The translations under genes and the position numbers were made by a program. From Patescibacteria group bacterium (GTDB lineage: Bacteria > Patescibacteriota > Patescibacteriia > Patescibacteriales > JAQVLT01): a DNA stretch of 64,000 nt. The notes under the pieces are model-generated. The model saw nothing but the letters and a program-made list of their open reading frames with translations, ran no database searches and was not told the origin of the DNA. Location of the stretch: assembly GCA_028704015.1 (NCBI GenBank), contig JAQVLT010000001.1, positions 39,484-103,483 of the forward strand, in the 5' to 3' direction. Of the stretch, positions 9,125-52,204 are shown piece after piece; position 1 is the first letter of the stretch; every line of letters starts with the position of its first letter.

Positions 9125-9766
9125 TCACATTGTTTCAACTTCCAAGTACACTACAAAAGCTTTTCTTATCCAAAACTCGGCTGTCTGCAGTGTACTGCAA
9201 AAGCTAAGGACGCGCCATGGCCGATCGCGGATTACACCGGACCATCCGTCAAAGTTAAAGGAGAAAGCGATGTCCTTACCGTTGCGGACAGTGAGGACGA
9301 TCGCATGAAAACGTCCGGATTTACTAGTTTCCAGAATTATCTCTACCGTAAGCCCATAAGACTCAATTTCAGTCCTGAGACTTTTCGGTAATATTCCTGC
9401 TGAAATCTCCTTAAATGCTTCTTCCCTCATTTTTTGCCTTCTTGTCTGCAAGGCATTAAGAGGAGAGCTGGCAGAGATTATTTCAATGTCTTTTATCCCT
9501 CTTTCCGCGGAAAAAAGAAAATTTCCATTACTCCAGGCCGCTCCGGTAGGGAAGGTCATTCCAAGCTTCCCATTTCCCTCCCACCTTCTTGATAAAAGAA
9601 TGGCAGCTACAAGTGCCGAATTGTCGAAACGAACAAGGCCGTTATTTTGCATTAAGTTTAGAAGGTTCAATGTTTCAAGACCATCTTCTCCACCCACAAA
9701 CGTAATTCGCAAGGGTTGGAGAAAATAATGTCTCTTTGCCATCTCTTCCAGTGTTTGTCTGTCCAT
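9125..9766 (-). CDS. hypothetical protein (GC-rich ORFan cassette)
   Basis: ORF with ATG at 9766 preceded by GAGAGGTG 6 nt upstream. GC-rich; no motif recognised. The track start (GTG at 9775) is less likely. Confidence 0.5.
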   Translation of the reverse strand: MDRQTLEEMAKRHYFLQPLRITFVGGEDGLETLNLLNLMQNNGLVRFDNSALVAAILLSRRWEGNGKLGMTFPTGAAWSNGNFLFSAERGIKDIEIISASSPLNALQTRRQKMREEAFKEISAGILPKSLRTEIESYGLTVEIILETSKSGRFHAIVLTVRNGKDIAFSFNFDGWSGVIRDRPWRVLSFCSTLQTAEFWIRKAFVVYLEVETM

Positions 9767-9916
9767 TTTATTCACCTCTCATTAAAAGGATTAAAATCAA
9801 AGATAAAATATCTTAATCTTGCGACCCAACACATTATCATGTTTTGCGGGGCTTGTCAACGCCAATCAAAAAAGAACCTTTTTAGGCTCTTTTTTATATT
9901 CATAAATTTGTACTTC

Positions 9917-9968
9917 TGTGGACCGGACCCGCCACCTAGCCGGTCGCTACCGGCTCGCTCTGCCAGAG
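9917..9968 (-). pseudogene. decayed tRNA-Ala copy (anticodon arm replaced by a GC hairpin, T-loop deleted)
   Basis: Reverse complement reads TCTGGCAGAGCG-[AGCCGGTAGCGACCGGCT]-AGGTGGCGGG-TCCGGTCCACA and aligns to the adjacent intact tRNA-Ala. Confidence 0.7.
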
Positions 9969-9988
9969 AAAAACTTATTTTTTGAGTG

Positions 9989-10061
9989 TGGACCGGACAG
10001 GACTCGAACCCGCCACCTCCTCGGTGCAAACGAGGCGCTCTACCAGATGAGCTACCGGCCC
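9989..10061 (-). tRNA. tRNA-Ala (anticodon UGC)
   Basis: Hand-folded cloverleaf: acceptor GGGCCGG/CCGGTCC with G3:U70, anticodon loop TTTGCAC, T-loop GGTTCGAGTCC. Confidence 0.9.
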
Positions 10062-10137
10062 ATAAAATTTACGATTTACGAATTATAATTTAGATATTTT
10101 TTATTAACCTATCTTCTAATATTCTTAACTGCTTTCC

Positions 10138-10229
10138 CTGCGCAAACGAGGCACTCGGACCCTGTCCCGATTAATATCGGGAAGATGCTTGTCCGCCGAA
10201 GCTTTAGCGTAGGCGGAAGCTACCGGCCC
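10138..10229 (-). pseudogene. decayed 5' half of tRNA-Ala interrupted by two GC hairpins
   Basis: Reverse complement: GGGCCGGTAGCT-[TCCGCC..GGCGGA]-..-[TCCCGATATTAATCGGGA]-..GTGCCTCGTTTGCGCAGG. Confidence 0.6.
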
Positions 10230-10350
10230 AAAAACAACAACAACTTTTAACACTCAGCAATTAACTGCAAAAAACAAAAGGCAGGTAAAATTATTACCTA
10301 CGCCTTATTAAAATATCTTATTTTTATAAAAAAAGCAAGTGCTAATAGTA

Positions 10351-10602
10351 TTATGGCTGGCTATATCGCAAAAGCGGCGAAAAAACCCAGGTTATGAACC
10401 CACCAATCATACCGGTCATAATCAAGATGCCAATAAAAATCGCAATAATACCGGTTAATTTATAACCCAACCTGGAGCCGCCCTCTGTCCCCAAGTGCGC
10501 TTCAAACCAAGCAATTCGGCCAAAAAAACTAAGTATATCTTCGGTTCTTACCACCATATACGCTCCAACCACCATAATAAAAATTCCTAAAATTATTGTC
10601 AT
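10351..10602 (-). CDS. small membrane protein, hypothetical
   Basis: 83 aa with two to three hydrophobic helices; ATG start. Confidence 0.45.
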   Translation of the reverse strand: MTIILGIFIMVVGAYMVVRTEDILSFFGRIAWFEAHLGTEGGSRLGYKLTGIIAIFIGILIMTGMIGGFITWVFSPLLRYSQP

Positions 10603-31157: not shown

Positions 31158-32777
31158 TTATTGAAATGATTGATTATAAAAAAAAGAGCCATGAAGCTCA
31201 TTTTTCCATTTAGGGGTGGCTACTGGGCAATGACCCAACACTTTCATTGACGAAAGCATAATTTTGAATTCGTCGTGCGGTTCAATGCCCACCACTTTTT
31301 TATCTTTAACCCAAACTCTTTTAATTATTAGTCTTACCCAATCCCTTCTTTCATCGTCGCCTATATCCGCTTTCCATAAGGTTTTGAAGTCTCTTAAAAA
31401 ATTATCAACTTTTTTCATCGCCCGTTCTTTATTCGCTTTAAAACTACCAGCCATTAAAACTCCAATGCTTTTATATTTTCTCAATTCCTCCTCAATCTCG
31501 CCGAGTTGCAACAAATAATCATCATTGCTAATCTCATCGGTATTGTCGTATTTGAAATTTAGTTTTCTCTTTTTAGCCAAAAGATTTTTAACTATTTGCA
31601 TTTCCACTGAATCGTCTTGAAAGCTATCAAATATTTCAGACGCCTTTTTTAGCGTATCTCTTATTATATCCTCTGAAACCTTAACGCAACCCATATAATT
31701 TAAAACTTGCTTGTCTATTATATCGCAGGGAACATTGGGCTGATTGCACGCTTTGGCTTCTCGCTTAAACTTACAAGTATAATAATATACTTCTTTATTT
31801 TTCCTGTCTATTTGCGTGTGGCAATACATTTTAGGGATAAAATTATTGGTTTTTTGTTCTTCTCTACCTTTCATATGCTTAACGCAATGGAAGCAATAGA
31901 CTAAACCTTGCAGCAAATAGAATCTATGTTTTGCCGTTGGCCGTCCGCAGGTATGCGATTTTTCGCTAATGATTTCTTGGACTTTCTCAAATATCTCCGT
32001 ATTTATAATCGCTTTATGCCCGCCTTTAACATTGGGGCAATCACGTCTGGGAGAAACAACTAATCCTAAATAAACTTTATTTTTCAAAATATCTTTTATT
32101 GAGCTAACCGTGAAAGGATTTTTATGTTTCGTTTTTAACCCTTTATCGTTTAAATATTTAGCCAAACTGGAAAAGGAATATTTGTTAGAGGCATAGAGTT
32201 TAAAAATCTCTTTTACTACTTTTACTTCAACTTCATCAATAAACAAATCTTTGGTGTTGCCTTTCTTTTTACAATAACCTAGGGGTGGATTGCCAAGACA
32301 AAATCCTTGTCGTCTCTTTTCTGAAAAAGCTTTCCTCATCCAAAAGCTTAATTGGCGACTGTAGTGTTCATCGAAAACCTCGTGGATTGTTTCGTTTAAA
32401 AAAACGTGCGGACTACTTGAATCGCCGAAATCTTGGCTGACAAATAACACTTCTATTCCCAGTTTATTACGAAGTAATTTCTTGTAATGTTGAGCTTCTT
32501 CAATGTTACGCGCGAAGCGGGAAGTATGAAATACTAAAATTACTTGAAATTTTCCTTCCATGGCGTCGCTTATCATTTGGTTAAAGGAATCTCGCTTTTC
32601 CGCTGAAGTTCCTGAAACCAAATCTTTGTAAAAACCAATCAGCTCAATATTATGTTTCTTAGCATAGGCGCGAATATCATTCTCTTGTTTTTGAGGCGAG
32701 AAGCCCTTGTCTTGGCTTTCGGTAGATTCTCTGATATAAAAGACTCCTAAACGCTTTTTTTCTTTAATTTCTTCCAT
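31158..32777 (-). CDS. large serine recombinase (resolvase/invertase N-domain, recombinase domain, zinc ribbon)
   Basis: GVFYIRESTESQ (catalytic Ser), VLVFHTSRFARN, Cys clusters CFHC...CKFK..C. ATG at 32777. The 3' end runs across the 14-nt tRNA-His-derived repeat. Confidence 0.85.
   Translation of the reverse strand: MEEIKEKKRLGVFYIRESTESQDKGFSPQKQENDIRAYAKKHNIELIGFYKDLVSGTSAEKRDSFNQMISDAMEGKFQVILVFHTSRFARNIEEAQHYKKLLRNKLGIEVLFVSQDFGDSSSPHVFLNETIHEVFDEHYSRQLSFWMRKAFSEKRRQGFCLGNPPLGYCKKKGNTKDLFIDEVEVKVVKEIFKLYASNKYSFSSLAKYLNDKGLKTKHKNPFTVSSIKDILKNKVYLGLVVSPRRDCPNVKGGHKAIINTEIFEKVQEIISEKSHTCGRPTAKHRFYLLQGLVYCFHCVKHMKGREEQKTNNFIPKMYCHTQIDRKNKEVYYYTCKFKREAKACNQPNVPCDIIDKQVLNYMGCVKVSEDIIRDTLKKASEIFDSFQDDSVEMQIVKNLLAKKRKLNFKYDNTDEISNDDYLLQLGEIEEELRKYKSIGVLMAGSFKANKERAMKKVDNFLRDFKTLWKADIGDDERRDWVRLIIKRVWVKDKKVVGIEPHDEFKIMLSSMKVLGHCPVATPKWKNELHGSFFYNQSFQ
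31214..31227. repeat. direct repeat gggtggctactggg, left copy (displaced tRNA-His 3' end)
   Basis: Identical 14-mer at 42306-42319. The next ~11 nt still resemble a T-arm. Confidence 0.85.
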
Positions 32778-32863
32778 AAATTTTAAGTTAATTATATATA
32801 AATATATTATAAAATGTTTTGGGATATTCCACAAGCAAAATTATGCTAACATTAGGTAAAAAT

Positions 32864-32892
32864 TTGACATTATGTTAACACGAAATTATAAT
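32864..32892 (+). promoter_or_regulatory. consensus sigma70-type promoter, divergent from the recombinase gene
   Basis: TTGACA (32864-32869), 17-nt spacer, TATAAT (32887-32892). Confidence 0.65.
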
Positions 32893-32911
32893 AAAAATAA
32901 GCCTGATATTT

Positions 32912-33058
32912 ATGAAAATAAACATCAAATTATTTTTAGAAGCACTAAATATTAATCGTAAAGAAGTAAGCGAAGTGATTCAACTTTCGCCAAATTTAGT
33001 TAAAGTAGTTTGGGCGGACGGGATGAGCCAAAAGTTTAAAGTAAGCAAAATTATTTAG
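32912..33058 (+). CDS. 48-aa ORF downstream of the consensus promoter (possible Xis/RDF-like or regulator)
   Basis: MKINIKLFLEALNINRKEVSEVIQLSPNLVKVVWADGMSQKFKVSKII; a helix-turn-helix-like middle. Below the track length cut-off. Confidence 0.35.
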   Translation: MKINIKLFLEALNINRKEVSEVIQLSPNLVKVVWADGMSQKFKVSKII

Positions 33059-33061
33059 CAA

Positions 33062-33562
33062 TTAAATTCCCAGCAGTTGCTTTTTCTTTGTTTGAAATTC
33101 CTCCTCGGTAATAATTCCCCGGTTTTTCATATCAGCCAATTTTTCTATTTCGTCATAATTACTACCTGATTTATTGTCTTTGCCTAATCTTGCGTCTTCT
33201 ATAATCTTCTCCCATGACCTAAAAAACGGCTCGGCTATTTTATCTAAATGTCCTAGAACGAGTCCATTTACATAAGAACGGCGTTCTATTGTTTTAGTTC
33301 TATTTTTGCCTTCTTCGTTGTACGAAATATCTAAAAAATCATAACCAGCCATAACTCCCTTTTTTGCTCTCACGTTTGTTATATTTTTAAGAGGGATATT
33401 AAATATTTTTTTACTAAGGCAAAGAAAGTAAATTTCATTTTGCGTTAAAACTAAACTGCCTTTCTTTTTTCCAAACAATTTTCCATTGTCATAAATTAGA
33501 TTAGATTCTTTTTTGATTATTTTTTCATCCTGCATATGTTTAATTATTTTATAACTTACCAC
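33062..33562 (-). CDS. PH-like (bPH/GRAM-type) plus SHOCT domain protein
   Basis: C-terminal LADMKNRGIITEEEFQTKKKQLLGI is a SHOCT signature. Start ambiguous: GTG at 33562 or ATG at 33535. Confidence 0.5.
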   Translation of the reverse strand: MVSYKIIKHMQDEKIIKKESNLIYDNGKLFGKKKGSLVLTQNEIYFLCLSKKIFNIPLKNITNVRAKKGVMAGYDFLDISYNEEGKNRTKTIERRSYVNGLVLGHLDKIAEPFFRSWEKIIEDARLGKDNKSGSNYDEIEKLADMKNRGIITEEEFQTKKKQLLGI

Positions 33563-34586
33563 CCATCGCTTGATAAGCGTTTAAAACATTTTCTAATGAC
33601 GTCTTTTCTGCTTCTGTAATTACACGGTCTTTATAGTAATCTTTGCCCTGATATCTTATCTTTGACTCTTTTGATTCTATTATTAATTTTGCAATTGCTA
33701 TCGCCATTGAATCCGCCTTTTCATCAGACCACTCCCAAACGGTATTTGAATTATCTCGTTTTATTTCGCTTGGAACATAATCAGTAGTTACATCGAAAAT
33801 TTTAAATATATAACGATTTATAAATAACCAATCTCCCCCGGCATAGCTCACTCTAAAACGAAGTGTCGGCACGTTCTCTTTGTTTACGCCAAAATACATA
33901 CTGACATTATTTGTATTGCGAGTCTGTGGTGTGTTTTGGTCATAATACCAAATAATGCCTTGCATATCATCAACCTCTTTTACCATTTTGCTTAAAGCAA
34001 TTTGTCTTTCTTTTTCTTCCGCCTCGGCCTTAGCTTTATTTTCCGCTTCTTGAGCTTCTTTCTTTTTTTGAGCGATTGCTTTTTCTTCTTCCGTTAATTC
34101 TCTTGAGATAATTATATTATCACTTTTATTTTTATTCCGGTAGCTGGCGAATAGACTGATTTTGTTTTCTCCTTGGTTTAAAGAAATTTGGCGAGAAAAA
34201 TGACCACCTTCAATTGCCACTTGCTCTCCGTTAATTTTCAAAGTAGCGTCCACTGGATTTATTGTGCCACTAATTGTAATTTGGTCGCTAAAGACATTCT
34301 TTTCGTGATTTTCTATGGTGATAATAGGGGTTGGAGAGCTAACATCTTTTATTATCGATATCGTAGGTGATATCATCATCAATCCTATAATTGAGATAAT
34401 AATTATTTTTATCTTTTTATTTATTTTTTCGCTTCTCCAAACATAAAAACCAATAACAATAAATATCGCCATTGCGAATAGCTTCGCCATTACATTATTT
34501 AACGATGGGAAAATAGTTCCTATTAAACCCAGCAAGAAGAAACCGATAAAGAAAATACCGACTCCTTTTAAGATTTTTTTGGTCAT
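33549..34586 (-). CDS. membrane-anchored protein with Ig-like and coiled-coil segments, hypothetical
   Basis: Three N-terminal TM helices, a beta-rich ITISGTINPVDATLKING segment and a KKKEAQEAENKAKAEAEEKE coil. Confidence 0.4.
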   Translation of the reverse strand: MTKKILKGVGIFFIGFFLLGLIGTIFPSLNNVMAKLFAMAIFIVIGFYVWRSEKINKKIKIIIISIIGLMMISPTISIIKDVSSPTPIITIENHEKNVFSDQITISGTINPVDATLKINGEQVAIEGGHFSRQISLNQGENKISLFASYRNKNKSDNIIISRELTEEEKAIAQKKKEAQEAENKAKAEAEEKERQIALSKMVKEVDDMQGIIWYYDQNTPQTRNTNNVSMYFGVNKENVPTLRFRVSYAGGDWLFINRYIFKIFDVTTDYVPSEIKRDNSNTVWEWSDEKADSMAIAIAKLIIESKESKIRYQGKDYYKDRVITEAEKTSLENVLNAYQAMGGKL

Positions 34587-34944
34587 ACTTTTTATAATTA
34601 AATAAATAAAATTAATTTTTTCCCACGCAAAAGGCCTCCCAACATAGTTTCATTACCCTTTCGGGCAATGGCATAGACAGCAAAAACTAGTCAGGAGACC
34701 ATCTCCGCTGTCTATGTCTTTTTAACCATGCCCAACGCACGTTGGGTTTAGGTCTAAATTTTCTCAAATTAATTATATTATAAAGCTACTGAAAAATAAA
34801 GACCTAATCCAACTTCGCCCCTAAATTAGCCAATTTTTAAAGTTTTCAATGAGCATATAATTTATTACCCGTTTTCCCTGAAAATCTGTCTAAGGGGAGA
34901 TTTTGCGGTTTTAGGGTATTTCTAGACAACGGACTTATAATGCA

Positions 34945-36087
34945 TTATAAGTCGGCGTTGAAAATCCAATTTTCTTCAATAATTTTATTTAACTTGGCAT
35001 TGTAGAATAACAGCTTGCTTTCAGAATTACTATATTCTGGCTTCAAATAATTCGTAATAATTTGATCGCTTTTTAAAAATATGACTTCCGGCCTATACGC
35101 TTTTTTTGCCATATCAATACATTTTTCTAAATTTTCTCGCGAGACTAATTCTGAAGGAATGCGAATTACTGCAAAACCTTCTGTGGTTAGGCATAAATTA
35201 GCTATCCTGTCCCTTTCAATGTTTTCTTCTATTTTTCCATGAAAATATTCGCTGTCTATTTGGAGTATTATTGGATATTTTGCGTCTTTCAAACGTAAAC
35301 AAAAATCAACGATGTACCCAATAAAATATTTTTTGTCTCTAAATATTTTTATTCCGAGCTGTTCCTGAATCATGTCTAGCCCCATTTCTTTAAGCAACTG
35401 CCTAGTTAATATTTCGGCCCGTGTTCTTTTAGGATTTTTTACGCCTGCTTCAATTCTTTTTTCACTTATCTTTAATTTTGTACTTTCCTGGCAAGGGGTG
35501 CCTTTTCTATTTTTTTGTCGATTTGCTTCTCTGAAACAATTCTTTATGTTTTGCCTAGATTTATTTCTTGCGCTTCTTAAAATCGTAAAATTTCTTCTTC
35601 TGATATAGCGAAGCTCTTTGTTTATAGGTATGCCCCTCCTTTTAAATAAACTAGTAACAGCTCCCGCGGTCACGCCAAATCGTTCAGCTATCTGAATAAT
35701 ACTTAACCCCTCTTTTTTATACATTTTTTCTAGCGCTTCTTTTGTTTTTAATTCGGCATTTCCTTTTTTAAATTTTAATTCAGCTGGTTTTTTTATACCA
35801 AATTTTTTTAGTGCTTTATTAATTTTGCTTGCCGATAAATTAAATTCTTTCATAATATCGGGGGCTGTTTTTTTTAGGATAATATAATTTTTTTCTAAAA
35901 ATTCTTTTGTTAAAGGTTTCTGAAATTCAGACTCTCGGCTAAATTCTAGATTTTTAATCTTTTTAATCCCATATTTTTTAAGCTCCTTTTCTATTTCTTT
36001 ACCAGACGCCCCCGTTTCTTCCGATATTTGTTTAATGGTTTTATTTTTATTCAGATAATTCTCTGATAAATACTCTTTGGTAATCAT
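34945..36087 (-). CDS. multi-HTH protein with C-terminal DUF559/Vsr-like PD-(D/E)XK endonuclease domain
   Basis: Three repeats of the I(S/A)E..G.S...I.K.LKK(Y/F)GIKK type, then VDFCL...ILQIDSEYFHG...RDR...GFAVIRIP. Confidence 0.5.
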   Translation of the reverse strand: MITKEYLSENYLNKNKTIKQISEETGASGKEIEKELKKYGIKKIKNLEFSRESEFQKPLTKEFLEKNYIILKKTAPDIMKEFNLSASKINKALKKFGIKKPAELKFKKGNAELKTKEALEKMYKKEGLSIIQIAERFGVTAGAVTSLFKRRGIPINKELRYIRRRNFTILRSARNKSRQNIKNCFREANRQKNRKGTPCQESTKLKISEKRIEAGVKNPKRTRAEILTRQLLKEMGLDMIQEQLGIKIFRDKKYFIGYIVDFCLRLKDAKYPIILQIDSEYFHGKIEENIERDRIANLCLTTEGFAVIRIPSELVSRENLEKCIDMAKKAYRPEVIFLKSDQIITNYLKPEYSNSESKLLFYNAKLNKIIEENWIFNADL

Positions 36088-36136
36088 AGATTTATTTTTG
36101 TTCTTTTCTGAAAAAGCGTGGCATTTTAAGTTATTT

Positions 36137-36820
36137 TTACCGCGTTTTTTCAGAAAAGAACATTGCGTTTAAAATTGTTAAATAGATGACATCTTGGCCA
36201 GCCTTTTGTTCGGTTACGATATAGATGTCAGACACAGTATTACCAGCATAAGTGGTAGTGTCATCGGCGATAGCAAAGGTCGGGATAATTGGCAATTTAC
36301 CTACCATTGATTGATAGAAGTTTACATCAATACCAGTAGATACAGAGTTAGTTTGGTCTAGGTTAACTCTTACATCACCAGCTAAAGACTGATTAATAGC
36401 TCTCTTCATTCCATAGGAACAATAGATAGCAGTCGGTTTAGCATTGTAAGTTTTAACGATATTGGCAATCTCTTTTTCTATTAAATCAGTTCTAAAACCA
36501 AGAGCATTGTTATTATCATCAGTGACGTTAGTGGTGATAAGAGTTTTCAAGCCGTCAAACTGTAATGCAGATACACCAGAGTTACCAGTGATGATGAATT
36601 GCTCTTCGTCTTGGATGGTTTCTCTAATAGCGATTTCAGTTTGCTCTGCTTCTTGGTCCATAAAGGACTTGCCAGCGGCTAACATTCTATCAGTGATAGA
36701 TTTGGTTTTACCCAATTCTTTATACACCGCAGAACGCCTTACATAGGTAGAAGCGCCTTCAGTCGGAGTGCCGCCTTCTGCGAAAGGAGCATTACCTACT
36801 CCGATAGCAGTTAGATTCAA
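36137..36820 (-). pseudogene. fragment of an HK97-fold phage major capsid protein gene
   Basis: No ATG; the track M is a TTG inside a longer frame. FAEGGTPTEG...SITDRML...EQFIITGNS..FDGLKTLIT resembles the middle of a capsid protein. The C-terminus ends in unrelated hairpin sequence. Confidence 0.45.
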
Positions 36821-37036
36821 GGCGGTTCTTTTGGTTTATCGTCTAAAAGGTGAGGATTCTTGCGTATTAATTCGCAAAAGAATTCTGCTAGTTTGTTGAC
36901 TGTCTGCTCGCTATAATTTTCATTTGTTTTTAGATTGTTTAAATTGTTCATTTCCCAAAAATAAAAAATAGTCATTGCAAGACTATTTTAAATTAATGGG
37001 CATTCATAAAATTCATATGATATTCATATGAATCTT

Positions 37037-37732
37037 TTAATGGATATACTTAGGATTTATTCTTACTTTTTTCATATCATATTTAAGAAAATCATTTATA
37101 GCTGTTTCTCTGGCTATGCTTTGATTTATGTTATTTGCTTTACCATTGAAGCGCTTAAGTAGTGATTCCTTTTCTCTTTTTTCGGGTAAGCTAGCATAAT
37201 ACTCAGGTTCCCATTTATTTTGGATGTCTGCGTAAAAGCATTCTTGTTGGGGGTCTTTAAATAGTTCCGCAAGCAAATCATATTGTTTAGATTTTTTTGA
37301 GAAATCAATTTTTTTTCCAGCAAAATATAAAATGTGATTTTTTTCATCAAATCGAGGACTGTGCTTAGTTATAACTGAAGTAGGGTCGTTTTTTTTAATA
37401 AGAACATCATAATTTTTATAAAAATCCTTCGTCAGAATTATATTATAATTTGAATACTCTTTTAAATTTTCAAACGGCATTACAATATCCATCGTGGAAA
37501 AATTTTCTAGCCATTCATCTGAAACCCTAATTTCTTCCTTTATAATATTTTCCTTCTTTAAGTTTCGAATTATATCTTTTAGATACCTTCTCTCTATGTT
37601 TAAATTTTGTAGTAACTCCGGGGTGATTGGAATTATTTTTTTCTCTATTGATGTGCCGATGGTAAATAAGTCAACTTCTTTTTTGAGAAACTTGAGGAAA
37701 ACGCATAAATCTATTTTAATTTCATCTTTCAT
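37037..37732 (-). CDS. hypothetical protein, possible C-terminal OmpR-type winged helix (4th gene of the RT operon)
   Basis: KKIDFSKKSKQYDLLAELFKDPQQECFYADIQNKW resembles trans_reg_C. Its start lies 2 nt after the HNH stop. Confidence 0.4.
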   Translation of the reverse strand: MKDEIKIDLCVFLKFLKKEVDLFTIGTSIEKKIIPITPELLQNLNIERRYLKDIIRNLKKENIIKEEIRVSDEWLENFSTMDIVMPFENLKEYSNYNIILTKDFYKNYDVLIKKNDPTSVITKHSPRFDEKNHILYFAGKKIDFSKKSKQYDLLAELFKDPQQECFYADIQNKWEPEYYASLPEKREKESLLKRFNGKANNINQSIARETAINDFLKYDMKKVRINPKYIH

Positions 37733-37734
37733 AC

Positions 37735-38469
37735 TTATTGAATAGAATTAATTTCACTAAATTTTAATATATAAAAATTGGCAATCATTGAGCCATTTTC
37801 TAAGATACTTCTCCTTCTTTCCATGTCGAACATTATTTTTACAAAAAGATAATTAAACTCAAAAAAAGCAAATTCCTTGTCGTCTTCGCAAGTTCTTATA
37901 AAACGATAACTCATACCAGCTTCTATTGACTTTGAGTTTGATCCTAGTAAAAGATAACCACCAAAATCTTTTTTTCCTAAAATAATATCTCTGATTTCAT
38001 CAAATCTTGGTGATAATGCTAATACGGCGCCATAATCTAAATATATAAGTTCCAAGGCAATTTTATACAACGATCGTGATATTAATTTTAAATTTTTACT
38101 ATCCATTTTTTTCTTTCCGAAAAAATTTAGTTTGCAACCATTTATAGTTTGTGCGAAATCACCTTTATTCTTTCTTTTTAATTTTACTTCTATATCAGCC
38201 CCTGAGGAATTTTTAAAATCAATGGTGCTAAAATTTGCTGTAGGAATCTTGCCAGACTTTGATTTTATGCCATAAATTGTTCTCTGAAACAATATAGGGT
38301 CAAAATTTACTAAAATACTATCTAATAATGATAAAGTTTCATTATTACATTTGTCGCATACTACTCCTTTAGGTAAAATTTTTTCTTTATTTCCTAAGGA
38401 TTCTGGAAAAATATGCTCTACGCTTGAGAATAAATTTTTTGTGTTTTTGCAAAATAAACAAATCCCCAT
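37735..38469 (-). CDS. HNH endonuclease domain protein (3rd gene of the RT operon)
   Basis: CLFCKN...SVEHIFPESLGN...VVCDKCNN at the N-terminus. Confidence 0.7.
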   Translation of the reverse strand: MGICLFCKNTKNLFSSVEHIFPESLGNKEKILPKGVVCDKCNNETLSLLDSILVNFDPILFQRTIYGIKSKSGKIPTANFSTIDFKNSSGADIEVKLKRKNKGDFAQTINGCKLNFFGKKKMDSKNLKLISRSLYKIALELIYLDYGAVLALSPRFDEIRDIILGKKDFGGYLLLGSNSKSIEAGMSYRFIRTCEDDKEFAFFEFNYLFVKIMFDMERRRSILENGSMIANFYILKFSEINSIQ

Positions 38470-38493
38470 AGATTTATAGTATATTTTTGTTAT

Positions 38494-39579
38494 TTATTTT
38501 CCCCTAACTAGGTCTATTTCTGCCTGAATTTGTTTGTCCAAATCTCTAGCTGCTTCCTCAAAAACGTCAGAAATCATCTTTAGTTCTGTCATGATTGTGA
38601 TATATTTTTCTAAGGCTTTACTTTCAGAAAGATTTGTGATCAGGTTCGCCTGATTATTTATTTCCGATATTCTACTCTTATTAATTTTTTTCCAATTATT
38701 TTTATATTTCAAAAATAATTCTTTATATTTTTTTTCTCCACTGAGCTTGTCTTCTTCAAAAACCCTTATCTCTTTCTTGTTTATTATGTGGAATGAATAG
38801 TAAAGGCAGTATTCATTAAATTTCCAATTTTTGGCATACGGGAAAAAGATGGAAAAGTCTTTTTTTATAAAGGATATATTCTTTCTGGTTCTTTTTAGAT
38901 TTCTTTTTATATTTTCTTTTAATAATGCTTGAATATTTTTTTCTCTTTTATCAATAAAATTAAAGAATCTTTTAAAAAAATATTGCCATTCTTCTTTAGT
39001 ATTGCTATTAAACCAAGCAGAATCTCTCTGCCTTTTCCGCACAAAGGGGTCAAAATTTTTTCCTTTTAAGGAAGTTATGCCTAACCCATTGCCCCACAAT
39101 ACTTTATTTTTTGTGATTATGTTATGTAATAAGATTAAACTTATTTTAACTAATAGTTTATCTTCGTCTATCGTATGGTAAAGGTTATTTCTGACGTTGT
39201 GACAAAAGGCAATTTTTTGTTTTTCTTCCTGCGTAATAATTAATTCTTTAACGCAAGTTTTTAATAACTCTCCATGATAACATATAATTTTTTCTCTATC
39301 CTTCTGTTTATATTTTTTGTGCAAAATATAACTTAATCCGTCTCTGAAAAGTATAGCATCCATTAATGTCCTTAATTGAATTTCAATAAAATTATCCAGC
39401 AAGATAACTGCCAATCTTTGATATGCGAAATCTTTTATTCTGCCAAACCTTGAGGCTTCATTTAATTGTATTTTTAACAAAACAGTTCGCTCCATAATAA
39501 AATAAATAATTATTTTTGAAAAAGTTCTATATAGCGCTGGTGTAGTGAAGAAATATTCATTTTTGTAATTGGCAAACAA
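38494..39579 (-). CDS. HEPN-type (Rx4H; AbiD/AbiF-like) predicted RNase (2nd gene of the RT operon)
   Basis: Codons 39192-39175 read R-N-N-L-Y-H (CHNVRNNLYHT) in an alpha-helical protein. Start is TTG at 39579 or ATG at 39495. Confidence 0.55.
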   Translation of the reverse strand: MFANYKNEYFFTTPALYRTFSKIIIYFIMERTVLLKIQLNEASRFGRIKDFAYQRLAVILLDNFIEIQLRTLMDAILFRDGLSYILHKKYKQKDREKIICYHGELLKTCVKELIITQEEKQKIAFCHNVRNNLYHTIDEDKLLVKISLILLHNIITKNKVLWGNGLGITSLKGKNFDPFVRKRQRDSAWFNSNTKEEWQYFFKRFFNFIDKREKNIQALLKENIKRNLKRTRKNISFIKKDFSIFFPYAKNWKFNEYCLYYSFHIINKKEIRVFEEDKLSGEKKYKELFLKYKNNWKKINKSRISEINNQANLITNLSESKALEKYITIMTELKMISDVFEEAARDLDKQIQAEIDLVRGK

Positions 39580-39618
39580 ATAGTACGGTTCATTTAATTA
39601 AGCTCTGAAAATCACTAT

Positions 39619-41031
39619 TTATCTTATATATTGTTTAGGATAAAAGTTCGTTTTTAGATAAACCAATCTTTTTTCTATATGAGTACAATTTAAATTTAAT
39701 TTTTTATAAAATTTTAATAGGGTGTAATGATAATTGTTATGAATCAATTCGTCTGATAATTTATTAAGAAAATTAATAAATTTTATTCTCTCTCGGTTGT
39801 TAAGGTTGTTGTATATTTTTTCTAAATGCCAAGCTTTAATTTTTTGCGATTGTATAAACTTGGGTTTTAGAAATTCGTAGAATAACTTTTTAACTTTTTC
39901 GTGCTGATTTTTAGAGGTAATTAAATTTAATAACCTTATCATTAGTGAGGAGCCATCATTTTTAAGCCCCTCCTTATTTTCTAAAAGAAAATCTATGGCG
40001 TCGTCTACTATTAAATGGTTTCTCTCAGACAGAAGTAAGTGCCATTGGAATGCCATATATTGCTCAAAGTCTTTTTTGTCTTTTATATCAACTTTTTTTT
40101 GATTAATGCATAGCCCATATTGCGTTAGTGACAAAGAAGCTAAATATGCTATCTCAGCCAAATCATTTTTTGATTTTGCAAAGATTATCTGGTCGTCAGC
40201 AAATCTTAGATATTTAGCTTGGTATCTTTCACATATTGCCAACATTTGATGATCATAGTCTTGCAAATAAAAATTCGCTAATATTCTAGAGCAATCTGCT
40301 ATTTCATCTTGGGGAATGCCAACGCTTTGTTGACTGTAAAAATTATAATCCCTATTCCAAAATTTTAAAAAGTGAAAAAGTAAACTAATCACATCGTTTT
40401 GCTCTGAAGGGCAAATGCCTCTTATTTTATCTTCTAACACATCAAGTCTAATTGAATCATAAAAATTGGCAATGTCCATCTCTAAAACGTAATTATGTTT
40501 ATTTGCCTTACACGAATGAACGTATACATTATTTGTAAATTCTCCCCATGCCGCCCTCCATGCGTTTGGGTTGAATGATGTTTCCATAGGGTATTCTTCT
40601 GACATGTCTAAAGTGACAATGTCGCCGTTCGGCATTTCGTATGACTTAAACGTTTGATTGTAATATTCTATTTCTTCTCGTTCTTGAGTGCGAATTTGTC
40701 CCCCAAGCTTCCATCCACCGTAGGTGCCAGGAGCCCTATTTCCTGATATATAATTCTCTAGCTTCTTAATACAATAAAAGTAAACACAAGTATCTCGGGG
40801 TGTAAATACTGGCACTATTCTAGAAATTGAATTCCCCTTATTAAATATAATATAACTTCTTGGTTTCTCGGGATAATAAGTTTTTTCAACTATTGAGGAA
40901 TGTAAATCACGCAAGAGTTCACGTTTATTATAGTCTTGCTCTATCGGGCAGAGGGTTTCTTTATTAATTTTTTTCCAAAACTGGCTAGTATTAACTGAAA
41001 AAATTTTATAAAAATTTTCAAAACTTTCCAT
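39619..41031 (-). CDS. reverse transcriptase, non-intron Abi/UG-like, with helical C-terminal domain (1st gene of the operon)
   Basis: RT motifs RIVPVFTPRDTCVY, MDIANFYDSI, GIPQDEIADCSRILANFYL, YLRFADDQIIF (FADD codons 40192-40203), GLCINQKK. ATG at 41031 (GTG at 41052 possible). Confidence 0.85.
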   Translation of the reverse strand: MESFENFYKIFSVNTSQFWKKINKETLCPIEQDYNKRELLRDLHSSIVEKTYYPEKPRSYIIFNKGNSISRIVPVFTPRDTCVYFYCIKKLENYISGNRAPGTYGGWKLGGQIRTQEREEIEYYNQTFKSYEMPNGDIVTLDMSEEYPMETSFNPNAWRAAWGEFTNNVYVHSCKANKHNYVLEMDIANFYDSIRLDVLEDKIRGICPSEQNDVISLLFHFLKFWNRDYNFYSQQSVGIPQDEIADCSRILANFYLQDYDHQMLAICERYQAKYLRFADDQIIFAKSKNDLAEIAYLASLSLTQYGLCINQKKVDIKDKKDFEQYMAFQWHLLLSERNHLIVDDAIDFLLENKEGLKNDGSSLMIRLLNLITSKNQHEKVKKLFYEFLKPKFIQSQKIKAWHLEKIYNNLNNRERIKFINFLNKLSDELIHNNYHYTLLKFYKKLNLNCTHIEKRLVYLKTNFYPKQYIR

Positions 41032-41153
41032 CGTGTTGGCGAAAATTAGCACGCGGTAGTGGTTGCCACGTCTAAATTATAATTAGTCAATTCTGCTTTT
41101 AATTTTGCACCTTTTATTATTAAAGTCAACTGTAAATTAGATTTTTACATATT

Positions 41154-41178
41154 GCAAAAACACCCCCGAAAAGGTGTT
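41154..41178 (-). terminator. rho-independent terminator separating ORF 41215-42150 from the RT operon
   Basis: aacacc/ggtgtt stem followed by a T-run on the minus strand. Confidence 0.6.
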
Positions 41179-41214
41179 CTTAATGTCGGTAGATTACAGA
41201 TAGAGCGAGTTCAA

Positions 41215-42150
41215 CTAGAACTCCATTTGTTTTGGTTTTTCAAACGGCATGTATTCTGTAACCAACTTAATAGAATAAGAAGATGCGATTTTATTGTTGG
41301 AGTCCTTTTTTTGCTTTATTTCTAAATCAACTTTTAAAACATCCTCCGCGTAAAGTCTGATTTCTCCGCTGTGTAATTTTTTTAAAAATACTTCATCATC
41401 AATAGTTACTGGCCATAAGACATTATTATCTCCCATAATAAAAGAATATGCTTTTTCTTCGCCAGAATAAGAACCTCGTTTTGGTTTTAAATAAATATTT
41501 TTCAAAATTGAAATATTATCTTCAGTTTCTTCTGATAATTCCGTGTGTGCATATTTTTCAATAAACTCAATATCTTCTTTTTTAATAATTTGCTCAGTGC
41601 TATCTTTCGCAGTTATTTTAAAGCTTACCTCGGTAGTTGCTGGAAATTTGCTAAACGGTGCAACCGTGCAATTGTAATAATTGTTTTGCACCAAAGGAGA
41701 TTGGACTAGCTTGTGTTCAGCCATGCTAACTTCCAACTTTTCACCAGTTGGAGAGATATAAGTTATTGTCTCACCATTATCTTTTCTTTCAAAATTTGAA
41801 ACTATACCCCTGGTGAATTGTATGATTTTAATTAAGCCCGTAACTCCTTCTTTTGCATTCAATCCCAAAAACGATAGAAGAAGCATTAAGCTTTGCCCAT
41901 CATCATCTTTGAGATAGTTTAATAAATGAGGTACCTGTGAATGCTGAATAACAAAATCAGTTATCCAAGAACCTTCTCTGAATGGCTTAACTTTAACATC
42001 TATTTTTTGTTCGAACCCAAGAATGTTGTTTGCAGAACGAATAAGTTCGCCAAAATGCATTAAAACGGGTGCTATTTCAAAAACATCAACGCCGTCATCG
42101 GCATTAATTCCATTCAGTTTATATATTATTTGAGTTTTTGAAATTTTCAT
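41215..42150 (-). CDS. hypothetical protein (island gene, own transcription unit)
   Basis: 311-aa ORF from ATG at 42150 (MKISKTQ...); no motif recognised. Confidence 0.45.
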   Translation of the reverse strand: MKISKTQIIYKLNGINADDGVDVFEIAPVLMHFGELIRSANNILGFEQKIDVKVKPFREGSWITDFVIQHSQVPHLLNYLKDDDGQSLMLLLSFLGLNAKEGVTGLIKIIQFTRGIVSNFERKDNGETITYISPTGEKLEVSMAEHKLVQSPLVQNNYYNCTVAPFSKFPATTEVSFKITAKDSTEQIIKKEDIEFIEKYAHTELSEETEDNISILKNIYLKPKRGSYSGEEKAYSFIMGDNNVLWPVTIDDEVFLKKLHSGEIRLYAEDVLKVDLEIKQKKDSNNKIASSYSIKLVTEYMPFEKPKQMEF

Positions 42151-42270
42151 ATTCAAATATATTATAACATATAACTAAATGAATAGCACTGGCGAAAACA
42201 AAATTTTTTAAGAGAAACACAATTTTTTATTTAATTAATAATTTTAAAGTAAACCAGTTTGTATAATACT

Positions 42271-42298
42271 AAAAACACCCCAATTAAGGGGTGTTTTT
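42271..42298. terminator. perfect bidirectional hairpin downstream of tRNA-His
   Basis: aaaaacacccc-aattaa-ggggtgttttt. Confidence 0.75.
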
Positions 42299-42305
42299 AC
42301 TTCAA

Positions 42306-42319
42306 GGGTGGCTACTGGG
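42306..42319. repeat. direct repeat gggtggctactggg, right copy (3' end of the intact tRNA-His)
   Basis: Identical to 31214-31227. Confidence 0.85.
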
Positions 42320-42379
42320 AGTTGAACCCAGGTTACTTGCGCCACAAGCAAGTGTTCTAGCCGTTGAACCATAGCCACC
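42307..42379 (-). tRNA. tRNA-His (anticodon GUG) with G-1
   Basis: G-1 plus acceptor GTGGCTA/TAGCCAC, discriminator C, anticodon loop TTGTGGC. Unusual T-loop TTCAACT. Confidence 0.85.
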
Positions 42380-42478
42380 ATGATATAATATATTTTACTT
42401 TAACTTATTAAGATACATTTCACAACCGAACAATTTAATTTCAACAATGGGGTTGTGTCGTGGAAAGTCTTTTGTCGT

Positions 42479-42542
42479 TGGGAATCGAACCCAGATCATC
42501 GGGACCACAACCCGATGTACTAACCGCTGTACTATAGCCACC
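42479..42542 (-). pseudogene. tRNA-His copy lacking the last 3'-side T-stem base and the whole 3' acceptor strand
   Basis: GGTGGCTATAGTACAGCGGTTAGTACATCGGGTTGTGGTCCCGATGATCTGGGTTCGATTCCCA, then unrelated ACGACAAAAG. No sequence pairs with the 5' acceptor. Confidence 0.8.
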
Positions 42543-43123: not shown

Positions 43124-43161
43124 AAATTTTAATTTTTTAAATTTCTAAATTTTTATACTTG

Positions 43162-43233
43162 TACGCCCGGGGGGAATCGAACCCTCATAACCAGCTTAGA
43201 AGGCTGGTGTTCTATCCATTGAACTACGGGCGC
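43162..43233 (-). tRNA. tRNA-Arg (anticodon UCU)
   Basis: Acceptor GCGCCCG/CGGGCGT, anticodon loop CTTCTAA, GGTTCGATTCC. Confidence 0.85.
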
Positions 43234-43257: not shown

Positions 43258-43334
43258 AACCCTCATAATCCCGCCGAGGCGGGACTGGTGTTCCCTGCCT
43301 GCCGGCAGGCAGGTATCCATTGAACTACGGGCGC
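43258..43334 (-). pseudogene. decayed tRNA-Arg copy carrying two GC palindromes
   Basis: GCGCCCGTAGTTCAATGGATA-[cctgcctgccggcaggcagg]-GAACACCAG-[tcccgcctcggcggga]-TTATGAGGGTT. Confidence 0.75.
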
Positions 43335-43554
43335 AATAAATAATAGTCCCGATTATTCGGGACGATTATAATTTAACAGAAATAATGAAGAAAGTCAACC
43401 AAAACGTTAAAAATTTTTAATTTCCAATTTTTAATTTTTAAATAATATCTTAATTTTTAATTATAAAATATTAGAAATTATTATATTTATAAATTATTTA
43501 AAAATTAAAAATTACAAAATTTAAAAATTCTATACTGTTTTTTGATATTATAAG

Positions 43555-50343: not shown

Positions 50344-50363
50344 CCTGCCTGCCGGCAGGCAGG
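50344..50363. repeat. perfect 20-nt palindrome cctgcctgccggcaggcagg
   Basis: Identical 20-mer at 43294-43313 and 52009-52028. Confidence 0.95.
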
Positions 50364-51661: not shown

Positions 51662-51860
51662 ACAAAAATAATGCAAATCTACAAATTAAATTCAAATTCC
51701 GCGAATAACGCAAAAGTGAATAAAAATCATTTATAGATTTGTAAATTAATTTTGAGTTAAAAAAAAATCTAATGAATTTCATTATAATTTTACTATTCGC
51801 TTGCCCAGGTGTCAATCTTGAAAAATACAAGAATTTAAAAATATAAAAATATTTAAAAAT

Positions 51861-52054
51861 CACCATGGGGTTTGGGGGCCGAACTAAGCGCCAAGGAAAA
51901 TGTTACCCAAAAGATTAATCAACGTGATAGCGCATTGAGGCCCCCAAAACTTTCCCGCCAAAGGCGGGCAAGTGCTTCTGGCGCCTGTCCGCCTTTGGCG
52001 GAGTTACACCTGCCTGCCGGCAGGCAGGAAAGAAGGCTCCCGGCAGGGGAAATT
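51861..52054. repeat. GC-rich noncoding element, copy B (homologous to 25412-25632), containing the 20-nt palindrome
   Basis: Same conserved blocks as copy A, with helix gtttgggggcc/ggcccccaaac. Lies between divergent polyamine genes. Confidence 0.6.
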
Positions 52055-52204
52055 TTATTGCATTATTTTATTATAAGATTTAAACAAACTTAATACTTAA
52101 AATAGTCTAATATTAAATAAAATTATTTAACTAGCATTAAAATGCTAAAAATATTGTCATTTTCGGTAAAGGTGTTAGAATAAAATTAATATTAATCAAA
52201 CATT

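Follow-up and report, generated by a model that had tools for sequence, protein, structure and literature searches.

Partial tRNA-Ala copies in a Patescibacteria genome as probable remnants of a family of small GIY-YIG elements at tRNA genes

A stretch of 64,000 nucleotides from contig JAQVLT010000001.1 (hereafter the window, meaning this whole stretch) was analysed around its tRNA-Ala(UGC) gene, which is intact and is flanked on both sides by crippled partial copies of itself. The window belongs to a Falkowbacteria-like Patescibacteria metagenome-assembled genome (MAG). These two copies are probably remnants, without an open reading frame (ORF), of a family of small selfish GIY-YIG elements that reside at tRNA genes. 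Complete elements, found at other loci, carry a stand-alone GIY-YIG ORF of ~80 aa within a tRNA transcription unit, placed between two copies of the target tRNA; one of these copies is intact, and the other is truncated and has segments replaced by GC-rich hairpins, typically YCCCGA-N4-TCGGGR. We favour the remnant reading because the window shares with these elements the same tRNA locus, the architecture, the sites of insertion (following position 12 and immediately ahead of position 22 of the tRNA) and two hairpin modules.

Results

An intact tRNA-Ala gene lies between two crippled copies

The tRNA-Ala(UGC) gene (9988..10061, minus strand, anticodon TGC) was identified by ARAGORN and by Rfam (RF00005, 60.9 bits, model positions 1-71); it has a G3:U70 pair and no encoded CCA. 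Partial copies became apparent on both sides of it when the minus strand was read. Smith-Waterman alignment against the intact tRNA gave a score of 25 for the upstream copy and 38 for the downstream copy, compared with a mean of ~14 (sd 2.2) for dinucleotide shuffles, and 0 of 1000 such shuffles attained either score. Both flanks were matched base for base in independent Logan assemblies of two sequencing runs; therefore, the copies are real and not an assembly artefact. The original prediction, made from the letters alone, had described an intact tRNA-Ala between decayed copies and had proposed a formal alignment of them; gene calls, strand reading, shuffles and independent assemblies all bear this description out. 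Four Logan unitig contigs (L002, L003, L005 and L006) end inside the tRNA-Ala gene (window 10000-10045) with overlaps of 28-30 nt. Such breaks are k-1 overlaps, as expected for k-mers common within a community, and are likely due to a tRNA core that other community members have in common, thus illustrating how tRNA genes fragment metagenome assemblies.

The upstream copy, like all features of this locus described below unless otherwise stated, is read on the minus strand. It begins with GGGCCGGTAGCT (10229-10218), which is identical to tRNA positions 1-12 as judged by 10-mer matches, and it does so 122 nt past a gene for an 83-aa membrane protein, the usual place of the tRNA itself in relatives. 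A hairpin, designated hpB (TCCGCC-TACGCTAAAGCTTC-GGCGGA), followed by CAAG, is inserted between positions 12 and 13 (10217-10192); including its ends, the module reads GCTTCCGCC-TACGCTAAAGCTTC-GGCGGACAAGC (10187..10220). The copy resumes with CATCT (10187-10183; positions 13-17), is interrupted just before position 22 by the palindromic hairpin TCCCGATATTAATCGGGA, that is TCCCGAT-ATTA-ATCGGGA (10182-10165), and passes through CAGGGTCC (10164-10157), to which no tRNA positions were matched, into GAGtGCCTCGTTTGC (10156-10142), which matches positions 22-36 at 14 of 15 bases in local alignment. Similarity ends after position 36, so that positions 1-17 and 22-36 are retained and there is no 3′ half. 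A 5′ half with two inserted hairpins had been correctly recognized in the original prediction, but the recognizable anticodon stem that it ascribed to this copy is not there: only the 5′ strand and the loop of the anticodon arm are kept, which rules out a stem. Between the upstream copy and the tRNA lies an AT-rich spacer of 80 nt (10062..10141; GC 0.18) with a TATAAT at 10087-10082. A promoter scan called no full sigma-70 site in this spacer, and neither an ORF nor a GIY-YIG remnant was found in it, its three frames showing by eye nothing like the C terminus of the family.

The downstream copy abuts the 3′ end of the tRNA. It starts with aCTCA (9987-9983; positions 10-14), is interrupted by an AT-rich insert of 15 nt (9982-9968), and continues with TCTGGcAGAGCG (9967-9956), which aligns with positions 15-26 at 11 of 12 bases. 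In place of the anticodon arm (positions 27-43), it carries the hairpin AGCCGGTAGCGACCGGCT, that is AGCCGGT-AGCG-ACCGGCT (9955-9938); the 5′ arm of this hairpin, GCCGGTAGC, is identical to tRNA positions 3-11, and no second instance of the hairpin was found among all loci searched. Then follow AGGTGGCGGGT (9937-9927; positions 44-54) and, joined directly to it, CCGGTCCACA (9926-9917; positions 66-74 plus one base), positions 55-65, that is the T-loop and the 3′ strand of the T-stem, being deleted. Positions 10-26, 44-54 and 66-74 are thus retained. The hairpin in place of the anticodon arm and the loss of the T-loop had both been foreseen; the extent proposed for this copy, 9917-9968, was too short, its true start being 9987.

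No cloverleaf was found in the flanking copies, as ARAGORN and the Rfam tRNA model matched the intact gene only and neither flank scored against that model even at E ≤ 10. Whole-copy RNA folding compared with shuffles was not significant for the two Ala copies (z = -1.39 and +0.33), and their stable structure consists of local hairpins only. A group I intron, an archaeal-type intron and a split or permuted tRNA were considered and rejected, since strands are still missing after hairpin removal (37-76 from the upstream copy; 1-9, 27-43 and 55-65 from the downstream copy) and no tRNA is rebuilt. Rfam searches with gathering and E-value thresholds, covering the window region, 15 related loci and 20 GIY-YIG loci, returned canonical tRNAs only, and there was neither a group I intron nor any other Rfam match at the window region.

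Complete GIY-YIG elements at the orthologous tRNA-Ala gene of relatives

Falkowbacteria-like genomes conserve the gene for the 83-aa membrane protein that precedes the tRNA, and scanning one genome per species with this gene yielded 80 loci, in 76 of which it was followed by a same-strand tRNA-Ala(UGC). The gap between the two genes was typically 0-100 nt in the relatives and 289 nt in the window. The genes upstream of the tRNA were syntenic (RNase J, LysM-M23 peptidase and the 83-aa gene), and the genes downstream of it in the window (a 213-aa ORF, Vut_1 and an F420-ligase-like gene) were found in 0 of the 80 related loci; therefore, tRNA-Ala is a synteny breakpoint. Each tRNA was then aligned to its own flanks. 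Significant partial copies (scores 37-82) were carried by about 10 relatives, most of the 76 loci being empty; the remaining flank scores ranged from 11 to 24, with the single exception of 30.5 for the upstream flank of L012. Thus, this cross-genome comparison, which the original prediction had also proposed, indicates that partial copies are patchy and not conserved.

Complete elements are present, patchily, at the orthologous tRNA-Ala(UGC) in four relatives (L012, L036, L037 and L088). An ATG directly after the intact tRNA-Ala of L012 and L036 opens an ORF of ~80 aa that matches PF01541 (E = 1e-15 and 3e-14). The GIY-YIG ORF of L012, L036 and L088 starts 0-1 nt past the tRNA 3′ end and is followed by a crippled copy in which TCCCGAG..CTCGGGA stands in place of positions 23-31; in L012 and L036, this post-ORF copy has lost its 5′ end and the hairpin is TCCCGAG-NN-CTCGGGA. 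The order is reversed in L037, which reads positions 1-21, a GC hairpin, positions 22-27, the GIY-YIG ORF and the intact tRNA. Closest in layout to the window is L088: its intact tRNA is preceded by a crippled copy made up of positions 1-22, the palindrome and positions 32-52, and is followed by the ORF and then by further crippled copies, which start with ACTCA, as does the downstream copy of the window. The window, for its part, has same-strand crippled copies of the adjacent tRNA that are truncated and whose internal segments are replaced.

An upstream crippled copy without an ORF, as in the window, also occurs in L012 and L088. That of L012 contains the hpB of the window with its flanks (GGTAGCT-TCCGCC..GGCGGA-CAAGCATCT), followed by the TCCCGAG..CTCGGGA palindrome. 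The hpB stem was further detected in L041, after a tRNA-Lys 5′ fragment, and, inverted and with the compensatory stem TCCACC/GGTGGA, in L186, ~115 nt downstream of a GIY-YIG ORF. The crippled copies of L036 and L117 have a sequence from another tRNA lineage than the intact gene of their host, which indicates horizontal arrival.

Several further tRNA-Ala flanks were recorded among the relatives. L061 (4450-4575 and 4620-4760) and L076 (4450-4570) have a GC-rich, hairpin-rich segment of ~110 nt (GGAC.AGAAAGCC.GA...GAGGCC.GGC.AGGG.GCTT...) between tRNA-Ala and a repeat of the last 19 nt of the tRNA; it is conserved between these two genomes, occurs twice in L061 and had no Rfam match. Among other tRNA-Ala fragments lacking an ORF, stacks of GC hairpins (CGCCCCGC..GCGGGGCG and CCCGGC..GCCGGG) followed by a tRNA-Ala 3′ end were seen in L013 (2350-2411) and L041 (4608-4733), 21-nt repeats of the tRNA-Ala 3′ end ~160 nt downstream in L045 and L069, and upstream tRNA-Ala 5′-end fragments with duplicated promoter sequence in L035 and L045.

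The element family and its nuclease

A total of 39 GIY-YIG loci were compared, 37 of them from a metagenome scan with an alignment of homologues of the L012 protein. An intact same-strand tRNA (Val, Ala, Asp, Pro, Arg or Met) lay within 200 nt of the GIY-YIG ORF in 27 of the 39 loci, and 24 of those 27 had a partial copy of the same tRNA across the ORF. The palindrome YCCCGA-N2-6-TCGGGR was present within 260 nt in 31 of the 39 loci, compared with six CCCGA..TCGGG hits in four loci among the 80 GIY-YIG-poor loci. Three layouts were distinguished: a crippled 5′ copy, the ORF and the intact tRNA, with tRNA positions 8-10 often supplying the ORF stop codon; the intact tRNA, the ORF and a crippled 3′ copy; and a crippled copy, the intact tRNA and the ORF. 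Tandem arrays of crippled copy and ORF exist as well. Two MAGs also show the arrangement, one of Sediminicola (Bacteroidota) at tRNA-Asp and one of Falkowbacteria at tRNA-Val(GAC). The tRNA segment replaced by the palindrome varies by lineage (D-loop, positions 22-31, positions 38-50 or T-loop), and in a rough neighbour-joining tree the nuclease clades follow the tRNA target and the palindrome position.

The 63 palindrome instances comprised 23 distinct sequences, their six-base arms being constant because the search pattern required them. The four-base centre is variable, and the outermost pair was T..A or C..G in 63 of 63 instances; such constant outer pairing would be compatible with a hairpin held by base pairing as well as with a symmetric site for a protein. 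The CCCGA..TCGGG core occurs twice in the window, with 0.10 expected and 0 of 100 shuffles reaching two, and both of these cores adjoin crippled tRNA copies. At tRNA-Ala, the family palindrome is inside the upstream copy (10165-10182), and the downstream copy has the other hairpin. Neither the Asp-type junction pattern nor any association of the palindrome with this anatomy was found in IMG/VR: the junction pattern had no match, and the bare palindrome had 58 hits, about our chance estimate, none of them beside a tRNA or a GIY-YIG ORF. One very GC-rich viral contig (L130, IMGVR_UViG_638276542_000001) carries about ten GGTCCCGAG-NN-CTCGGGACC palindromes at 9960-10560; this array has the palindrome core in common with the family but no tRNA or GIY-YIG ORF, and it appears to be an unrelated repeat. 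Searches of defence-system libraries gave no meaningful match.

The family profile best matched UPF0213 structures (1ywl and 1zg2) and then SLX1, a structure-specific endonuclease. The family proteins consist of the catalytic domain only and have no DNA-binding domain. In PHROG and NCBIfam, only weak similarity was obtained, to homing and group I intron endonucleases. Annotated phage or plasmid relatives of the nuclease share only ~40% identity, and the two inspected stand in ordinary contexts without tRNA copies. Public GIY-YIG homologues of the L012 protein have often been mis-extended into tRNA DNA by the gene caller: N-terminal extensions of the GGSRFES..VH type are translated T-arm, and C-terminal extensions of the GSSVGYPENSGLPV type are translated D-arm plus the TCCCGAAAACTCGGGA palindrome. 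The mis-extended records in alignment A4 are P0084, P0085, P0095, P0103, P0105, P0110, P0111, P0113 and P0121.

Other tRNA copies, palindromes and neighbouring genes in the window

Two other tRNA genes of the window also have copies beside them. The tRNA-Arg(UCU) gene (43161-43233) is intact and has a crippled copy upstream (43258-43363, minus strand) that reads GCGCCCGTAGTTCAATGGATA / CCTGCCTGCCGGCAGGCAGG / GAACACCAG / TCCCGCCTCGGCGGGA / TTATGAGGGTT; its first hairpin lies exactly between positions 21 and 22, a GTCCCGAATAATCGGGAC palindrome stands 12 nt upstream, and its folding gave z = -4.3. A complete GIY-YIG element at tRNA-Arg(UCU), followed by tRNA-His as in the window, was seen in L117. 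The intact tRNA-His (42306-42378) is preceded, at a distance of ~100 nt, by a divergent tRNA-His(GUG)-like copy (42477-42542, minus strand). The D, anticodon and T arms of this copy and its 5′ acceptor strand are present but the 3′ acceptor strand is missing, and it matched the Rfam tRNA model at 39.7 bits (model positions 8-63). Three of the six tRNA genes in the 64 kb thus have such copies, which suggests a sizeable load of selfish DNA at the tRNA loci of streamlined genomes of the Candidate Phyla Radiation (CPR).

An integrated island of ~11 kb is present at tRNA-His (31158-42305, minus strand; GC 0.27-0.34). A repeat of the final 14 nt of this tRNA (CCCAGTAGCCACCC) is found at 31227-31214, where it falls inside the 3′ end of the gene for a large serine recombinase (31158-32834). 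Other products encoded on the island are an SU10-type capsid fragment, an HNH endonuclease, a reverse transcriptase and a SHOCT protein, and the island contains a LOOT RNA (RF03000, 62.1 bits; 34641-34754, minus strand).

The perfect 20-nt palindrome CCTGCCTGCCGGCAGGCAGG occurs in the window at 43294-43313, 50344-50363 and 52009-52028, settings that are, respectively, the crippled tRNA-Arg, a plain intergenic spacer and a GC-rich structured region, with no visible GIY-YIG link. It is a dispersed palindromic repeat, found exactly in two other Falkowbacteria-like genomes (L016, 2180-2199; L020, 3799-3818). The structured region just mentioned (51850-52065, minus strand) is unannotated and intergenic; besides the 20-nt palindrome, it contains TCCGCCaaaGGCGGA and CCCGCCtttGGCGGG hairpins and a long GGGGGCC/GGCCCCC helix, folds at -86.5 kcal/mol (z = -4.0) and had no Rfam match at E ≤ 1. 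It may be an unrecognized structured RNA.

Past the downstream copy of tRNA-Ala, an A/T-flanked hairpin, AAAAAGAGCC-TAAAA-GGTTCTTTTTT (9868..9897), which is terminator-like on both strands, closes the tRNA unit ahead of the gene for a 213-aa protein. Weak sub-threshold Rfam matches to this hairpin came from small RNA families whose models end in similar hairpins. The 213-aa ORF (9125..9766, minus strand), called in the GenBank record, is the first gene past the synteny break at tRNA-Ala. It had been described as a GC-rich ORFan; moderately GC-rich it is (0.44 compared with 0.37 for the window), but it is not an ORFan, for 46 remote homologue clusters exist beyond its own. The protein had no match in Pfam, PHROG, NCBIfam or PADLOC, and an indexed search for the neighbours of its homologues returned only the 213-aa protein itself.

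Discussion

The findings at the tRNA-Ala locus are explained by a family of GIY-YIG elements with good probability, and we infer from the anatomy of these elements and from the precedent of phage T4 SegB, described below, how they might spread. The nuclease would cut a naive tRNA gene, and the two tRNA copies of the donor would serve as the left and right homology arms, so that repair copies the ORF in and makes the duplication. As the intact tRNA would always be regenerated, the host would survive. The hairpins plausibly mark or cripple the spare copy, blocking tRNA folding or action while DNA homology is kept; they may also stabilise or insulate the ORF transcript or, alternatively, be the nuclease's own substrate. 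An anti-recombination role for them was considered and is weakened by the uninterrupted identity of 31-41 nt between copies (our own count, L012 and L107). Elements would later decay, losing the ORF and leaving the crippled copies behind, and in the window an upstream-type and a downstream-type remnant would persist beside the working tRNA-Ala. Indirect signs of homing are the foreign sequence in crippled copies, the tandem arrays, which may reflect re-cutting of the regenerated tRNA, and the correlation of nuclease clade with target.

Several observations weigh against this reading. No GIY-YIG ORF or remnant was found in the 64-kb window by tblastn with three GIY-YIG queries (E ≤ 10), and there is no room for an ORF at its tRNA-Ala, where the spacer is 80 nt upstream and zero downstream; the window locus can therefore only be a remnant and not a complete member. 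Its putative link to the element is one of architecture, locus and shared hairpins only, and the downstream hairpin AGCCGGTAGCGACCGGCT is unique and differs from the family palindrome. The model would also have tRNA genes cleaved by proteins of ~80 aa that have no DNA-binding domain and are nearest to UPF0213 and SLX1. A simple homing model offers no explanation for the regenerated intact tRNA, which would still be a target, and the loss of an ORF with both copies kept would lack a clear route. Moreover, other GC palindromes of this genome, such as CCTGCCTGCCGGCAGGCAGG, are dispersed away from tRNAs; therefore, some hairpins may be independent colonists.

This last point leads to an explanation in which tRNA-Ala was duplicated locally and decayed, and was then colonised independently by palindromes resembling repetitive extragenic palindromic (REP) sequences or miniature inverted-repeat transposable elements (MITEs), with the GIY-YIG ORFs of relatives being incidental neighbours or secondary invaders that used such tandem tRNAs as landing pads. 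The 20-nt CCTGCCTGCCGGCAGGCAGG has three copies in the window, one of them in an ordinary intergenic spacer, and exact matches in L016 and L020; hpB stands at different tRNAs, in either orientation, in four genomes; crippled copies without an ORF outnumber those with one among the Falkowbacteria loci; and the junction of tRNA and crippled copy in the window is the very point that the ORF takes in L088. We nevertheless regard this course of events as unlikely, as the CCCGA..TCGGG palindrome is near-absent in the 80 GIY-YIG-poor loci but carried by 31 of 39 GIY-YIG loci from different phyla and at different tRNA species, two of the four hpB instances lie within ~160 nt of a GIY-YIG ORF, and nuclease clades co-vary with tRNA target and palindrome position. 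It is also improbable that, in a streamlined genome, three tRNAs in 64 kb each underwent spontaneous tandem duplication as single genes. Thus, colonisation of tRNA repeats by palindromes, one of the options originally put forward, holds insofar as hairpins recur across loci and genomes, but at least two of them, CCCGA..TCGGG and TCCGCC..GGCGGA, travel with GIY-YIG elements. Repeated integration and excision at tRNA-Ala by integrase-type islands or prophages, another of those options, is the least probable of the explanations weighed here. The tRNA-Ala is indeed a synteny breakpoint, with the genes upstream conserved and those downstream different in 80 of 80 relatives; L045, L069, L061 and L076 repeat only the last 19-21 nt of the tRNA 60-160 nt downstream, as an attachment (att) site would; a true island with a large serine recombinase sits at tRNA-His in the same window; and tRNA fragments from integrating elements are documented (PMC9897764). 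There is, however, no recombinase beside tRNA-Ala, whose neighbouring ORFs are without Pfam hits, a 5′ half is present upstream, hairpins stand in for internal arms, no island separates the tRNA from the downstream copy, which abuts it, and the upstream copy is 80 nt away, and the homologous arrangements in relatives enclose a GIY-YIG ORF and not an integrase. The idea of a mobile element at the tRNA was therefore right in spirit, and it is the kind of element that the relatives correct.

The flanking copies could also be functional RNAs, namely tRNA-like decoys, antitoxin-like partners of the nuclease, or elements for the processing or stability of the tRNA transcript. The window and L012 share a conserved hpB with its flanks, though the adjacent protein is only 60% identical; stems show compensatory changes (TCCGCC/GGCGGA versus TCCACC/GGTGGA, and outer T-A versus C-G in the palindrome); and in full elements the crippled copy forms an untranslated region of the nuclease mRNA, and tRNA positions 8-10 often contain the stop codon. 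Most relatives, however, are without copies and the extent of the copies differs between loci, acceptor or anticodon stems cannot form, the folding z scores are those given above, and neither an Rfam family match nor a partner nuclease was found in the window. A functional role is thus highly improbable, and the decoys of the original prediction in particular are not supported by copies that are patchy in relatives and have neither a tRNA fold nor significant folding.

Within the GIY-YIG interpretation, a more far-reaching version would make the palindromes working parts: a minimal, structure-specific GIY-YIG nuclease of the SLX1/UPF0213 type would recognize CCCGA-N4-TCGGG hairpins or cruciforms and move via tRNA-gene homology. 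This is a speculative possibility, to which we give some, though low, credence. If true, it would mean a new class of hairpin-dependent mobile element in Patescibacteria and Bacteroidota that rewrites the arms of tRNA gene copies, and copies without an ORF could still be mobilised in trans like MITEs or act as landing pads for reinvasion.

Returning to the window copies as probable remnants of the GIY-YIG family, the locus, itself a relic, points to a strategy, recurrent and apparently undescribed, by which a selfish gene can reside at an essential single-copy tRNA gene and let its host survive: the tRNA is duplicated, one copy stays intact and the other is crippled by a conserved palindrome. 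In the literature searched, which omitted most subscription journals, neither the pairing of GIY-YIG ORFs with partial tRNA copies nor the palindrome sequence was found described. A nuclease of ~80 aa with the catalytic domain only is among the smallest conceivable and raises the question of target specificity. In practical terms, crippled copies can mislead tRNA annotation. We place the family among the free-standing GIY-YIG selfish elements, with the window locus as a probable decayed representative of it.

Among known systems, the UPF0213 proteins (YhbQ/YazA-like) have the same size and domain content as the tRNA-associated nucleases. The housekeeping members, however, stand in conserved operons without tRNA copies or palindromes, the Listeria gene, for example, lying between a tRNA methyltransferase gene and rsmI, whereas the tRNA-associated clade is patchy, sometimes in tandem, and horizontally transferred. 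SegB of phage T4 is a GIY-YIG homing endonuclease encoded in a tRNA cluster; it recognizes tRNA T-arm DNA and spreads by double-strand-break repair, carrying flanking tRNA sequence with it (PMC2330249). The present elements likewise have a GIY-YIG nuclease gene set among tRNA genes. SegB, however, is a full-size phage enzyme encoded between distinct tRNA genes, whereas the present nucleases are ~80 aa, belong to the UPF0213/SLX1 branch and are encoded in cellular genomes, none having been found in IMG/VR contigs; and, unlike in SegB, the ORF has an intact copy of a tRNA on one side and a crippled copy of the same tRNA on the other, with a conserved palindrome taking the place of arms in the spare copy.

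Integrating elements are known to leave fragments of tRNA genes behind (van der Gulik et al. 2023, PMC9897764). Such att-type fragments resemble the window copies in being partial, non-functional tRNAs beside an intact gene that are produced by mobile DNA. They are, however, uninterrupted pieces of the 3′ (rarely 5′) part, located at the distal end of an island that has an integrase, whereas the window copies lie on both sides of the gene, abutting or nearly abutting it, are rewritten internally by hairpins, and are associated with a nuclease ORF. GC-rich palindromic mobile repeats are also familiar from AT-rich genomes, as in the GC clusters of yeast mitochondria, the palindromic elements of Rickettsia and bacterial REPs, and the likeness to these lies in short GC-rich hairpin modules at many sites, including within sequence derived from RNA genes. 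A transposase of the REP-associated (RAYT-like) type was not seen within the 64 kb, where no systematic search for one was made. Unlike such repeats, the main palindrome is linked across phyla to both GIY-YIG ORFs and tRNA copies, and it takes the place of tRNA segments instead of simply being inserted.

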